From Limnothrix sp. BL-A-16 (lineage in GTDB: Bacteria > Cyanobacteriota > Cyanobacteriia > CACIAM-69d), in contig CP166615.1 in the NCBI GenBank assembly GCA_041937175.2, positions 1,312,001-1,376,000 on the forward strand: DNA of 64,000 nt. The letters are read 5' to 3'. Within the stretch, counting starts at the first letter, position 1; the number at the start of each line of letters is the position of its first letter. The position numbers were made by a program, and so were the translations under genes. Shown in pieces: positions 5,754 to 63,318 of the stretch. Under the pieces are notes generated by a model, which saw only the letters and a list, made by a program, of their open reading frames with translations, was not told the origin of the DNA and ran no database searches.

Positions 5754-5884
5754 GAGGATGTCTGAGAAGTATCTTTCAGTACGAGCCAAGCATCAATTAT
5801 CGTGGGGGCAAGGGGCTTAAGCCCCTTGTTTGCGTTGATTGCTGGAGCATACAGAGTAGCAAGTTTGGCTTTTCAGACATCCTC
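5754..5884. mobile_element. 131-bp MITE (outer type; IS5/IS1031-like ends) carrying a REP-like palindrome
   Basis: TIRs GAGGATGTCTGAGAAG / CTTTTCAGACATCCTC; TTA on both flanks (5751-5753, 5885-5887); CAAGGGGCTTAAGCCCCTTG at 5809-5828. Confidence 0.9.
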
Positions 5885-9489: not shown

Positions 9490-9588
9490 GAGGATGTCTG
9501 AAAAGTGGTTCGGATGGGCTGCCAAGCCCCTGGCTTGCGTCGATCGATAAGTCCGGCAAGTAGTAGCTGTGGCTTTTCAGACATCCTC
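9490..9588. mobile_element. 99-bp MITE (outer type, shorter variant interior)
   Basis: TIRs GAGGATGTCTGAAAAG / CTTTTCAGACATCCTC; TAA duplicated on both sides; only a remnant (AAGCCCCT) of the central palindrome. Confidence 0.88.
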
Positions 9589-9924
9589 TAAACAAGTCTC
9601 TGAGGTCATGGCCAGGAACATCCCCAACTCAACCTCTAGGTGAATTTTTGGGCAAATTTCTGAAAAGAAACAGTCTCGATGGCCATTTTTAACCCCCAAG
9701 GGCGTTGGTGGCCCAACGGTTTCCAAGGGAGCTAACTGTCCATAAAGTACCCATCAGGCAAACCAGAAAAAATCCGGGAAGGGCAATCGAAATCATCCAG
9801 AAAATTGAAGCATCAATGGTCACCCTTGGATAGCGATCGCTCGGGATAGGCAACGATCGCGGGGTTACTCGTGACGGTTCAACAAGCCGAGTTTTGAAAG
9901 GGTTTGATTGATTTTTCGCCCTAA

Positions 9925-10195
9925 GAGGATGCTTAAAAAGTATTCTTTGGCACGGGCAAGCACCAATAGCCGTGGAAGGGGCTTAGGGCCTGTCGTCGTT
10001 GAGCACGAAACCCTAGATCTGCCGTTAGCGGATCGTGGGGGACAAGGGGCTTGAGCATCTTGTTGCGACGACTAGGGCATGGAAGATTAACTGTTTCAGC
10101 ATCACCTCGAAATAATGACGACAGGCCCTAAGCCCCTTGTCTAAGTCGATCACTGGGGCGTACAGAGTAGCAATTTTGGCTTTTCAGACATCCTC
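9925..10195. mobile_element. 271-bp composite: outer MITE with an inner MITE nested in its palindrome
   Basis: TIRs GAGGATGCTTAAAAAG / CTTTTCAGACATCCTC; TAA duplication; the palindrome is split as AAGGGGCTTA[...]TAAGCCCCTTG. Confidence 0.88.
9986..10128. mobile_element. 143-bp inner MITE (IS5/IS427-like ends) with TA target duplication, carrying its own REP-like palindrome
   Basis: TIRs GGGCCTGTCGTCGTT / AATGACGACAGGCCC; TA on both sides; internal ACAAGGGGCTTGAGCATCTTGT at 10042-10063. Confidence 0.87.
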
Positions 10196-12141
10196 TAAGG
10201 GGCTCCAACGGTGATAAAGGCAGACCAGTCCCGAGGATTTGGATGCTGTTTGATGGTTTCCAGCATGGCGCTGCGCAGGGCGACAGCGGTATCGGGATTG
10301 CGCTGAAGTGCTTGATAAAAGGCAATCATCAGCGTTTTGGTGGGGTTGTCGGGCACTTTCCAAAGGGAAGCCACCACCGTGGGCACGCCGGCCACTAGGA
10401 ACGATCGCGCCAGACCCATCACCCCATCACCCGTAATGCGACCCCGACCAGTATTACAAGCACTCAACACCACGAGCTGGGCTTGCAAGCGCATGGTGGC
10501 GATTTCTGCGGCTCGTAACAGACCATCATCCCCTCGGGAGGGAGCCAGGGCCAAGAGGCCGGGCACGGCCGGCTGCACCACCCCTTCCCCCGCTAAGGCG
10601 AGGTTGGCATTGTTGCCATTGACCGTTACGTTGCCGCCAATGATCACAGAGCCAGGGCTGACAATTACGCCGCCGTGGCGAGCTTTGGGGGCGTTGGGAT
10701 CGCGCGGGCGGCCAAACTCGTTCAAATTGGCATCCAGATCCAAGACCCCGTGGGTGGCGAAATGCAGGATCCGTTGATGGGGCATTTCAGCCACGATCGC
10801 GCTTTTGGTGGCTTGATCGGTCAGCAGCGGTTGCACCCCCAGCATTTGAGCCACCGCCTGGGCTTCGGTTTCGGCTCCGGGCAAAGGAGCCAGCCGCTCC
10901 CGTTGGCCGTCGGGGCCGGCGGGCACTTCGGGCATTAAGACCGGGTTACCCACCACCAGGCCGGGCTGGGCCGCAGGGGTTTGCGTTTTACGGCGTTGCT
11001 CAGCAATGGCTAACACCTGAAGGGATGGCGTTGTGGCGATCGTCTGGGTTTGAACCAGGTAATCGCCGTTGGGATTCTGGAGGGCCGCAAAGGGAACCAG
11101 GTTAGTGGCCCCTTGCACCACAAACACCAAACGCTGTTTGGGATCGCGGGGCAATTGAGGGGCGATCGGGGCGATCAACAATTGGTAGAGTCGTTTTAGC
11201 TCGGTGGTGGCGCTGTCGGCGGTGGGTAACACAGCGGTCATGGCTCCCCGGGCCGCCAACACCAATTCCGTGAGGGATTTGGCGGACACTTGGGCGAGAT
11301 CCACCTCCTTGAAGGCGATCGACCCATTGGGTTGCACGGTCCAAATGGCGACGATCGAGTCGTCTTCCAATTCATCACCAATAATCTTCGGGGTTTTGCC
11401 CAAGACCGCATAGGTGACGAGGGTCGCGTTGAGCTGTTTGGCCAGTTGGCGAATTTGCCCGATCGACAGGGATTCAGTTGTGGGCTGGCGGGCGGCCTGT
11501 TGCATCAACACTTCCACCAGCGCCCGGGCCCGACCCCGTTCGGCCCACTCCAGGGCCGCCTCAGTTTTGCCTTGGACAATCAGCGTTCGCAACAGTTGGC
11601 GATAGGCGTAGCTTTGTTGTTCCAGCAGCGTCACCCGTTGAATATCGTTTAAGTCGCCGCTGGCTCGTTTGGTTTCCCAAGACTGAATCGCCATCAACAG
11701 ATGCTTTTCGGCGGCCGCATAGTCGCGGGTGCGATATTCCGCAATGGCCAACCGACTCAGCCAAGTTTCGTTGCCCGGGTTCCCGTTGGCAAAACGCCGC
11801 AACAGGGGAATGGCCTCCGCATCCCGCCCCAACAGCATCAGACATTGGGCCAGGGGGCCAACGGCCTCGGGGCGATTCCCGCCCCCTTGGTCGATCGCCT
11901 GTTGGTACAACCGGGCAGCTTCGGCGTATTGATCTTGGCGATAGAACAATTCATCGGCCCGTTGAATGAGGCGATCGACCTCGAGATTTTGGGCCCGGTG
12001 GGGAAGCAGGGGGCGGGACTGGGGCCGTTGATCGTTGGGGATCAAGCGCCCGGCCGCCGTCACGGGCCCGCCGAGGCTGACCGATCCCCCCACGAGCGAG
12101 ATCGTCACCATTGCTAACCAGTGCCATCGCCAAGCCACCAT
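10195..12141 (-). CDS. TPR + CHAT (caspase-fold peptidase) protein with a predicted signal peptide
   Basis: Catalytic His motif LHFATHG and Cys motif VVLSACNTGRG; VASLWKV and P.DWSAF motifs; N-terminal TPR-like helices. Start placed at ATG 12141. Confidence 0.9.
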   Translation of the reverse strand: MVAWRWHWLAMVTISLVGGSVSLGGPVTAAGRLIPNDQRPQSRPLLPHRAQNLEVDRLIQRADELFYRQDQYAEAARLYQQAIDQGGGNRPEAVGPLAQCLMLLGRDAEAIPLLRRFANGNPGNETWLSRLAIAEYRTRDYAAAEKHLLMAIQSWETKRASGDLNDIQRVTLLEQQSYAYRQLLRTLIVQGKTEAALEWAERGRARALVEVLMQQAARQPTTESLSIGQIRQLAKQLNATLVTYAVLGKTPKIIGDELEDDSIVAIWTVQPNGSIAFKEVDLAQVSAKSLTELVLAARGAMTAVLPTADSATTELKRLYQLLIAPIAPQLPRDPKQRLVFVVQGATNLVPFAALQNPNGDYLVQTQTIATTPSLQVLAIAEQRRKTQTPAAQPGLVVGNPVLMPEVPAGPDGQRERLAPLPGAETEAQAVAQMLGVQPLLTDQATKSAIVAEMPHQRILHFATHGVLDLDANLNEFGRPRDPNAPKARHGGVIVSPGSVIIGGNVTVNGNNANLALAGEGVVQPAVPGLLALAPSRGDDGLLRAAEIATMRLQAQLVVLSACNTGRGRITGDGVMGLARSFLVAGVPTVVASLWKVPDNPTKTLMIAFYQALQRNPDTAVALRSAMLETIKQHPNPRDWSAFITVGAP

Positions 12142-13861: not shown

Positions 13862-14003
13862 GGGCCTGTCGTCAAATCACCTGAAGCCCTGATTCCACCG
13901 TTAGCAGATCGTGGAGGACAAGATGCTCAAGCCCCTTGTTACGACGATTGGGGCATGGAAAATCAACCGTTGTTGTCTGATCTCAGGAAATGACGACAGG
14001 GCT
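13862..14003. mobile_element. 142-bp inner MITE (IS427-like) inserted in a free-standing REP-like palindrome
   Basis: Left end GGGCCTGTCGTCAAAT, degenerate right end AATGACGACAGGGCT; flanks CAAAGGGCTTA ... TCAGCCCCTTG; interior collinear with 9986-10128. Confidence 0.85.
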
Positions 14004-16130: not shown

Positions 16131-16261
16131 GAGGATGTCTGAGAAGTATCTTTCAGTATGGGCTGAAGATTAATTGTCGTAGGAACAAGGGGCTTAAGCC
16201 CCTTGTCTACATCGATCTCTGGGGCGTACAGAGTAGCAATTTTGGCTTTTCAGACATCCTC
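16131..16261. mobile_element. 131-bp MITE (outer type) carrying the REP-like palindrome
   Basis: Same TIRs and length as 5754-5884; TAA duplication (16128-16130, 16262-16264); palindrome at 16186-16205. Confidence 0.92.
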
Positions 16262-38560: not shown

Positions 38561-38869
38561 ATGGATATTGCCAGTCTTCTGTTGCGTGCGGCCGTTGCTC
38601 ACATTCCCCAAACGGTGATGATTCCCCTCTGCTTTGGGTTGGCTTGGTATTTGGTGGCCGTTCTGGTGCGATCGATCGCCAGCTTCACCCAAGAGGGCGT
38701 TTCGCGGGTGCGCACTTTGCACCAAATTCCCTGCGCGGACTGTGCCTTTTTCACGGGCGATTACCACCTCAAATGTCCCGTCCGTCCCAGCGAGGCCCTG
38801 TCAGAAGCGGCGATCAATTGTCCAGATTTCCAACCCAAAACCACCCCCCCTGGCTTAGGGGAGGTCTGA
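38561..38869 (+). CDS. Small conserved cyanobacterial membrane protein with a four-Cys motif
   Basis: TM helix then LHQIPCADCAFFTG.YHLKCPV.P..ALSE.AI.CPDF. The last codons and stop lie inside a MITE end. Confidence 0.7.
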   Translation: MDIASLLLRAAVAHIPQTVMIPLCFGLAWYLVAVLVRSIASFTQEGVSRVRTLHQIPCADCAFFTGDYHLKCPVRPSEALSEAAINCPDFQPKTTPPGLGEV

Positions 38870-39143
38870 GAAGTATTTTTTGGCATAGGTCAATCCATAA
38901 CCGTCGTCAGGGCAAGGGACTTAGGGCCGGTCGTCATTTCCATCGCCGTAGGGGTTGGGTCTCCCAACCCTAACCCGGGCGATCGCTACAACCCTGTCCA
39001 CCCCTGGGAACACCCAAGGATCACGGAAATGGGCGAGGAGACCTCGCCCCGACGACTGATCGGTTGGGAGAACGAGATTATTAGGGTTTCACGACACGTC
39101 CTAAACCCCTTATCTTTGTTGATTGATAAGACCCGCAAGGTAG
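38858..39143. mobile_element. Decayed three-level composite: outer MITE left arm, REP halves, inner MITE
   Basis: TTA + GGGGAGGTCTGAGAAGTATTTTTTGGCA matches the outer left end. Then CAAGGGACTTA[inner]TAAACCCCTTA. The right arm resembles the 9490 copy (gataagacccgcaag vs gataagtccggcaag), but the right TIR is lost, so that boundary is approximate. Confidence 0.7.
38924..39101. mobile_element. 178-bp inner MITE (IS427-like ends) carrying a GTAG-REP doublet
   Basis: Ends GGGCCGGTCGTCA / TCACGACACGTCC with TA on both sides; inverted REPs at 38948-38972 and 39031-39053. Confidence 0.75.
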
Positions 39144-39175
39144 GCAGTCTCAGCGGGGTGAGCTTGACGGCTCGG

Positions 39176-61302: not shown

Positions 61303-61322
61303 CAAGGGGCTTAAGCCCCTTG
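61303..61322. repeat. Free-standing REP-like palindrome between convergent genes
   Basis: Perfect CAAGGGGCTTAAGCCCCTTG with TCGT...ACGA outer flanks. Confidence 0.9.
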
Positions 61323-63163: not shown

Positions 63164-63318
63164 GGTACAGATAGTCGTAGGAGCAAGGGGCTGAAGTCCC
63201 TTGTTTCCGTCGATGTTCAAATACCTAATGAACCCAAACGGTACAGGTAGTCGTAGGAGCAAGGGGCTTCAGCCCCTTGTCTTCTTCGATGTTCAAATGC
63301 CTAGTGAACCCAAACGGT
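63164..63318. repeat. 76-bp tandem duplication containing the REP-like palindrome and the SSADH gene 3' end
   Basis: Units 63164-63239 and 63240-63315; palindromes at 63184-63203 and 63260-63279. Confidence 0.92.

Follow-up and report, generated by a model that had tools for sequence, protein, structure and literature searches.

The results described below indicate that the 142-bp inner element of a three-layered repeat system is very probably a non-autonomous derivative of an IS5-family (DUF4096/DDE) transposon, which prefers palindromic targets and has nested independently both in copies of an outer MITE and in stand-alone copies of a short repetitive palindrome, hereafter the REP. This reading builds on element boundaries, target duplications, empty sites, enrichment at the palindrome, independence of the nestings and a parent family, all of which are established in the following sections; transposition itself is inferred from genome comparison, not from directly observed events.

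Layered repeats in the window and their empty sites in a congener

The window, that is, the whole 64,000-nucleotide stretch analysed here (G000:C1:1312001-1376000), belongs to a 4.54-Mb genome of 55% G+C, in which GCGATCGC, which we take to be the HIP1 motif of cyanobacteria, occurs in 5,209 copies. Three layers of repeats are present: the palindrome (REP) CAAGGGGCTTAAGCCCCTTG, a 131-bp outer MITE carrying the REP, and a 142-bp inner MITE splitting the REP at its central TA. Their positions in the window are as follows.

5754..5884, + strand: intact outer MITE, flanked by TTA/TTA, with a perfect REP at 5809-5828
9490..9588, + strand: 99-bp deletion derivative of an outer MITE, flanked by TAA/TAA, without the left REP half
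9925..10195, + strand: composite, an outer MITE (131-bp type, judged to be IS5-family-derived) interrupted by an inner MITE; TAA duplication at 9922-9924 and 10196-10198
9975..9985, no strand: left half of the split REP, GAAGGGGCTTA, with 1 mismatch, duplicated TA included
9986..10128, + strand: inner MITE, 143 bp, in the palindrome of the outer MITE; ends GGGCCTGTCGTCG / TGACGACAGGCCC, flanks TA/TA
10043..10062, + strand: REP inside the inner MITE 9986-10128, asymmetric allele V, CAAGGGGCTTGAGCATCTTG, without the central TA
10129..10139, no strand: right half of the split REP, TAAGCCCCTTG, duplicated TA included
13862..14003, + strand: inner MITE in a stand-alone REP, flanks ACAAAGGGCTTA / TCAGCCCCTTG; allele V flipped at 13919-13938
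16131..16261, + strand: intact outer MITE, flanked by TAA/TAA, with a perfect REP at 16186-16205
38858..39160 (right boundary approximate), + strand: decayed outer MITE, its REP split by a 178-bp inner variant
38924..39101, + strand: 178-bp variant MITE in the REP centre, with inner-type ends and an unrelated interior
61303..61322, no strand: perfect REP in another repeated context, its flank TTACCACGACTG...CAACTTTGACCC resembling a third MITE family
63184..63279, no strand: two REP variants (2 and 1 mismatches) within a 76-bp tandem repeat

The nested layers, as described in an earlier sequence-only reading of this DNA, are borne out by the sequence, all three motifs exceeding their numbers in dinucleotide shuffles: the REP (up to 3 mismatches) has 8 matches in the window versus 0 expected, the outer end (up to 3 mismatches) 10 versus 0.79 (largest 3), and the inner end (up to 2 mismatches) 8 versus 1.77 (largest 5). 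In the composite at 9925-10195, whose outer MITE is perfect at its right end and degenerate at its left (GAGGATGCTTAAAAAG), the flanks GAAGGGGCTTA and TAAGCCCCTTG of the inner MITE rejoin into the palindrome CAAGGGGCTTAAGCCCCTTG with one TA. The same reading had placed the inner copies at the central TA of the palindrome with duplication of that TA, which is correct in that the flanks rebuild the REP; the third copy (38924) is the 178-bp variant, a member of a 9-copy family in which 4 of the 9 adjoin a REP half. The window is devoid of a transposase, also as stated.

Empty sites were found in a genome of the same genus (G002), whose contig C22 and C1:1262422-1350922 are syntenic, with an identity of about 93%. 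The site orthologous to the inner MITE at 13862 is an intact CAAGGGGCTTAAGCCCCTTG; the composite at 9925 is absent as a whole, the site reading ...TTTTTCGCCCTAAGGGGC... with one TAA; the site of the outer MITE at 5754 has one TTA and no element; and at the variant of 38924, G002 keeps the decayed outer MITE with an unsplit REP, CAAGGGGCTTCAGCCCCTTG. An apparent break of synteny near 38922 was dismissed, being the insertion itself, beyond which the flank continues in G002. There is also a reverse case, in which G002 has an inner MITE between GGGAGCCTA and TAAGCGG (CCTA and TAAG at the junctions) and the present genome reads GGGAGCCTAAGCAG (CCTAAG). Thus, the search of a related strain suggested by the earlier reading supplied empty sites for a REP, an outer host and a composite alike, and these demonstrate the element boundaries, the TA and TNA duplications and the nesting in place. 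At the site of the outer MITE at 16131, G002 carries a member of a third, REP-bearing MITE family instead (L045, about G002:C22:67147-67301). The sequence at 9490, formerly called a remnant, is indeed derived from an outer MITE, but what remains in the window (9490-9588) are 99 bp of a former composite, shortened by a deletion between CCAAGC microhomologies; its orthologue in G002 is an outer MITE that still holds nested pieces, namely an inner MITE in the opposite orientation and the right part of a second one.

Genome-wide, the outer MITE has about 116 paired copies, 85 of which (85/116) show identical 3-bp flanks: TTA in 32, TAA in 26, TGA in 17, TCA in 9 and CTA in 1. The triplet is preceded by C in 67 of these 85 and followed by G in 69, so that the target is CTNAG and the duplication TNA; the TWA duplication originally assigned to this element is therefore to be revised, given the 17 TGA and 9 TCA pairs. 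Outer-type ends also bound MITEs with different G+C-rich palindromes inside, for example CCCCCTTAAAAAGGGGG, in Nostoc and other genera (L168, L170, L173, L223, L231), one MITE copy among these having a 41-bp extra insert.

Target choice and independent nesting of the inner MITE

By iterative peeling of full-length copies from the genome (three rounds, yielding 105, 4 and 0), 109 full-length inner MITEs were collected, whose length of 142 bp is too short for a transposase gene. REP halves (up to 2 mismatches each) flank 24 of them on both sides, 14 on the left only and 15 on the right only, and the remaining 56 have no REP half; TA is present on both sides in 73/109. With the inner copies removed, the genome contains 116,473 TA sites, among which 340 (0.29%) are REP centres, and 24 of 109 insertions at REP centres correspond to a binomial p of about 1e-37. 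The ends TAGGGNNTGTCGTC directly abut AGGGGCT in 56/162 cases here, 27/74 in a second congener (G001) and 16/72 in G002. With 24 + 29 of 109 copies at REPs, always at the central TA, and with replication in two congeners, the inner MITE behaves as a REP recogniser in the sense of Tobes and Pareja. The REP targeting surmised from the window is thus real, and it persists under control for the hexamer: insertions into CTTAAG number 16 in REPs versus 1 outside, the available sites being 309 versus 318 (Fisher p 1e-4). Survivorship must inflate the enrichment, probably by a single-digit factor, as insertions in intergenic REPs persist more readily than those in genes, but it does not account for the contrast at constant hexamer. 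The preference for the REP is strong and not exclusive, since 56/109 copies lie outside REPs. The 39 non-REP sites with TA on both sides follow the consensus gCYTARGc, a weaker palindrome, with CCTAGG 7 times, and because they share this consensus, the REP centre GGCTTAAGCC represents the best match to a general palindromic preference.

It is possible, if on the unlikely side, that there is no recognition of the REP, and that a short preference (YTAR/CTTAAG) is combined with neutral survival, through which REP-embedded copies have become over-represented. Such a short preference would account for the recurrence of the same palindromic core, including the seven CCTAGG, at non-REP sites, and for the fact that Streptomyces MITEs sharing these ends are mostly flanked by C-TA and TA-G; against it stands the ratio of 16 REP hits to a single non-REP hit for one and the same hexamer, at nearly equal site numbers. 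A longer sequence preference of about 10 bp would still fit this alternative and overlaps with our preferred explanation; the preference may reflect a 10-bp sequence only, not recognition of the REP as such. A different objection concerns the composites, which could in principle stem from one nesting event, copied whole by the transposase of the outer MITE; several composites share a length of 270-278 bp, and the guest of the focal composite is close to that of another one. We regard this origin as very improbable on the following grounds. The 15 inner copies in outer hosts occur in both relative orientations (7 and 8). In a maximum-likelihood tree of the 109 inner copies (142 columns only, with 61/106 inner branches unresolved), the 15 guests are scattered, needing 14 label changes, no fewer than shuffled labels do, and the well-supported branches force at least 3 and at least 6 changes for the two orientation classes. 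The focal guest (9986) is 97-98% identical to the non-REP copies at C1:819539 and C1:2352281 and to the guest at C1:3331424, and the hosts of these two near-identical guests are clearly divergent, their arms differing at many positions and by a 4-bp indel. Lastly, the host at 38858 is without a guest in G002. The composites therefore arose by independent nestings, and the single nesting that the sequence-only reading had allowed for as an alternative is contradicted.

Parentage of the MITEs and spread of the palindrome

The 15-mer end of the inner MITE, TAGGGCCTGTCGTCA, is identical at the end of a ~930-bp IS in an unrelated bacterium (L058), which has two overlapping ORFs matching DUF4096 (94 bits) and DDE_Tnp_1 (40.5 bits, over the cut-off), along with a DDE_Tnp_1_2 match of 28.1 bits, just under the cut-off of 29.2; the inner-type end also bounds TA-flanked MITEs in Streptomyces. 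The 16-mer end of the outer MITE recurs unchanged at either end of a 941-bp element of Scytonema (L193) with TAA/TAA flanks, whose ORF matches DUF4096 (97 bits) and whose DDE part is without a Pfam match, and the same 16-mer bounds MITEs of quite different interiors in many cyanobacteria. Judged by these identical ends on full-length ISs with IS5-family ORFs, both MITEs are of IS5-family descent, as the earlier reading had it, the inner being assigned to the DUF4096/DDE type and the outer to the DUF4096 type. In terms of ISfinder subgroups, the inner MITE may correspond to IS427 and the outer to IS1031.

Pfam scans of this genome revealed no intact transposase with matching ends, so that movement is past or dependent on an undetected source. 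Several candidate parents were rejected because their ends match neither MITE: three IS630-type copies, with ends CAGCCTTTRCC; a 912-bp IS with ends AGACCTCTTGCACGAAT and a 3-bp duplication, present in nine copies (C1:280498-281409 and eight others) that form two 91%-identical subgroups with DDE_Tnp_4/DDE_Tnp_1 matches; and a lone DUF4096/DDE IS at C1:3867133-3868066, with ends GAGCTAATTCATAAAG and a TTA duplication. Long-range pairs of matching ends enclosing ORFs were likewise discarded, being two MITEs around ordinary genes. One copy of the 912-bp IS is located 9 bp from a perfect REP. A truncated cognate IS does exist at C1:1150880-1151180, where an inner-type end and a frame-shifted DUF4096 fragment directly follow a REP left half and the remnant ends at a 371-aa ORF; since this remnant adjoins a REP left half, the autonomous form used the same target.

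In the predicted mechanism, a DUF4096/DDE transposase would move the inner MITE in trans and duplicate the TA. The preferred target would be a palindrome of roughly gCYTARGc, for which the REP centre GGCT-TA-AGCC is the best and most abundant match in this genome, chosen by a transposase that may read its sequence and/or a hairpin structure. The outer MITE is a separate IS5-family derivative, which duplicates TNA in a CTNAG target and has the REP at its centre. Because the REP is the best target and is itself carried by MITEs, the inner MITE nests repeatedly and independently in outer MITEs and stand-alone REPs. Later recombination between palindrome halves would then trim the nests, giving rise to 68-bp arrays and deletion derivatives as well as to chimeras and exchanged alleles.

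Several sequences look like products of the latter kind. There are 21 apparent cases of an inner MITE in an inner MITE, all in the same orientation and all with model positions 1-68 as the host part; they consist of the left 68 bp (the end plus the left palindrome half) repeated in tandem, with private mutations shared among the units and the right part never arrayed (C1:2460854-2461290, with up to five units, 68895-69255, 327365-327653 and 2500132-2500500). A self-nest in opposite orientation was found 0 times in this genome and once in G002. The deeper nesting looked for after the earlier reading consequently amounts, in this genome, to tandem 68-bp arrays, the peel being exhausted by the third round. 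REPs borne by inner MITEs were hit in 0 of ~72 cases versus 32 of ~345 for the others (Fisher p 0.003, from hand-assembled counts that are indicative only), and the simple target model does not predict the absence of opposite-orientation hits in inner-borne REPs. Further candidate products include an outer MITE at C1:1448202 with a REP and two left-part units but no right part, the G002 nest orthologous to 9490, in which one left part is missing, and a chimeric inner MITE at C1:722139-722281, in which one main subfamily on the left gives way to the other on the right at the internal REP.

The REP occurs in 326 exact copies and in 424 copies with up to 2 mismatches, being a short, high-copy, imperfect palindrome as is characteristic of REP/REPIN sequences. 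When the contexts of the 424 copies were assigned by nhmmer models made from full-length MITE copies, 93 lay in near-full outer matches, 109 in near-full inner matches, 102 in partial matches to either model and 120 elsewhere; about 72% (304/424) are thus in MITE-like contexts. Orientation by the flanks of the 120 stand-alone copies reveals a conserved unit of only ~28 bp, GGGGG-CAAGGGGCTTAAGCCCCTTG-TCT. The palindrome inside the inner MITE, described before as an imperfect copy, is indeed present, but it is a discrete and recurrent allele, CAAGGGGCTTGAGCATCTTG, with three linked changes in one arm and the central TA lost, found in 40 + 28 exact copies and in both orientations. Its hosts are collinear MITEs, inner ones in 23 and 6 cases and outer ones in 13 and 7; in two collinear inner MITEs of the window its orientation is opposite (10043 versus 13919), and the allele is almost the sole difference between two inner copies of 97% identity, perfect in one and CAAGGGGCTTGAGCATCTTG at 10043 in the other. 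The 20-mer therefore changes as a unit, and this may plausibly come about when nests are trimmed by recombination or when breaks in the middle of the palindrome are repaired. At least three MITE families carry the REP centrally, including the 131-bp outer MITE. The third family, of ~140 bp with the REP at its centre, is exemplified at C1:1937622-1937763; its ends are GTAGCGCGACAGGCTTAA, it duplicates TA or TAG, and G002 has an empty site for it.

In a wider search, the 20-mer (up to 1 mismatch) was detected in 12/31 genomes and 10/26 genera, and a reversed-pattern control in none. It reaches 12-46 copies in genomes of other genera or families (G003, G011, G013, G015, G017, G021, G030; six genomes of other families), where its local contexts are unrelated, and the inner MITE was found only in the two congeners (G001, G002) among the genomes searched. 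Its presence in 10/26 genera, mostly without an inner match, means that the REP does not depend on these MITEs. For the mutually propagating system that had been proposed, the outcome is therefore divided: the MITE-like contexts of 304/424 REP copies and the 15 inner MITEs in outer ones speak for it, whereas the wide occurrence of the REP without these MITEs and the 56/109 inner copies at non-REP sites speak against it.

Two other accounts of the palindrome itself have to be weighed. That it was made by the inner MITE, as an excision footprint or as the outermost part of a longer inner element, and was not an independent target, is hardly credible: the REP arms (AGCCCCTTGTC) do match the tip of the element (GGGCCTGTCGTC), if faintly and weakly, but the element has the same boundaries at its 56 non-REP sites, and the 20-mer is abundant in genomes without an inner match (46 copies in G003, 46 in G013, 36 in G017 and 38 in G030). 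We also consider it unlikely, though by no means as remote, that the palindrome is a classical REP spread by the one RAYT-like tyrosine transposase of this genome, the MITEs being passive hosts that it has colonised. This would account for the central REP in three unrelated MITE families and agrees with the conservation of only ~28 bp in the 120 stand-alone copies. A 265-aa Y1 protein (C1:1721486-1722283) has the REP-associated tyrosine transposase as its best NCBIfam match, at 56 bits, below the cut-off of 80, and RAYT-like orthologues (60-67% identity) occur in 5/9 other genomes with at least 12 REP copies, related genomes not being independent, and as fragments in one more, versus 2/21 genomes with 0-2 REP copies. 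A RAYT gene flanked by REPs might have been anticipated, but at all 8 loci (this genome and 7 orthologues) the ~1.5 kb around the gene are free of REPs, even with up to 4 mismatches allowed. Nor is a GTAG/CGTC tag conserved, GT[AG]G standing at a fixed offset in 16/120 stand-alone copies, and among the gaps in ~130 kb aligned with G002, a small sample, there is no gain or loss of a REP only. Four local repeats with a spacing of ~510-580 bp come after the RAYT-like gene (C1:1721486-1724406), and the final ~100 bp of the gene recur in every one of them.

As a tentative and rather doubtful proposal, the REP may instead be a shared 'landing pad and cargo' module, passed as a unit and in either orientation from one unrelated MITE family to another when nests are trimmed by recombination or central breaks in the palindrome are repaired, so that a process driven by transposons, not a RAYT, would maintain and homogenise a pan-cyanobacterial REP. 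Since the transposons that target the REP also carry it, each transposition would seed a new target. If true, this proposal would cover the flipped allele, the copies that differ only by the allele, the chimeras with a crossover at the REP and the presence of the REP in three MITE families.

Relation to known systems and significance

The role of the REP as a landing site is worth comparing with that in other systems. For IS621 and the IS110 family, the REP is a preferred landing site, reached by a DEDD recombinase with an RNA guide and without a duplication of this kind; landing on a REP is common to both, and the parent of the present MITE encodes DDE IS5-family proteins. Nested plant MITEs were reportedly used by Jiang and Wessler in 2001 to read insertion preference. 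There, as here, a MITE within a MITE reveals the target preference, but the plant site is a generic TA/TAA-rich one, whereas the bacterial target described here is one specific 20-bp palindrome. Small dispersed repeats of Nostoc are said to have been described by Elhai et al. in 2008, and in Anabaena variabilis, REP dimers lie inside long palindromes (Di Nocera et al. 2013, PMC3733652). These repeats resemble ours in that a longer, MITE-like inverted repeat has a short palindrome in its middle; the small repeat is the guest in those cases, whereas here a MITE is also the guest of the small repeat, the direction being read from the empty sites.

REP-targeted insertion is established for several ISs (PMC1525189, PMC3184786, PMC3733652). 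IS1397 and ISKpn1 insert into REP loops (PMC1525189; IS1397 also PMC3184786, PMC3116915), and the other REP-targeting ISs include ISPpu9, ISPpu10, ISPa11, ISPsy8, ISRm19 and ISRm22 (Tobes and Pareja 2006, PMC1525189). Such ISs share with the inner MITE a highly selective insertion into a short, high-copy palindrome, extragenic in their case and presumably so here. In distinction from them, the present element is a non-coding MITE of an IS5-family (DUF4096/DDE) lineage, the central TA is duplicated, and MITEs, among them the targeting element, carry the target palindrome as cargo. Cyanobacteria are also known to have IS-derived MITEs of 130-170 bp in abundance, such as Nezha and the Microcystis MITE groups (PMC3184786); their ends match a full-length IS and their recent movement was deduced from genome comparison, as here, and the cited passages of that paper make no mention of palindrome-preferring insertion or nesting, unlike the present case. 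In the open-access literature, a search for nested MITEs in bacteria brought up only plant or fungal papers, one on the target specificity of IS5 in connection with MITEs and REPs gave nothing but unrelated reviews, and open-access text yielded no report of a MITE targeting a REP that MITEs also carry, no mention of the 14-mer core of the palindrome, and no paper that combines IS427, MITE, target site and palindrome.

REP hot spots for ISs being already known, what is new here is that the targeting element is a MITE and that its target is itself borne by MITEs. The system provides a natural and countable record of target choice, in which 109 insertions can be set against the empty sites of a sister species and the pattern recurs in two congeners, and a compact means of asking whether a DDE transposase reads the sequence of a palindrome or a hairpin. 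Nesting followed by recombination at a shared palindrome would be a way to shuffle and homogenise repeat families. Finally, the occurrence of the 20-mer in many cyanobacterial genera without an adjoining RAYT bears on the manner in which REP-like repeats spread.
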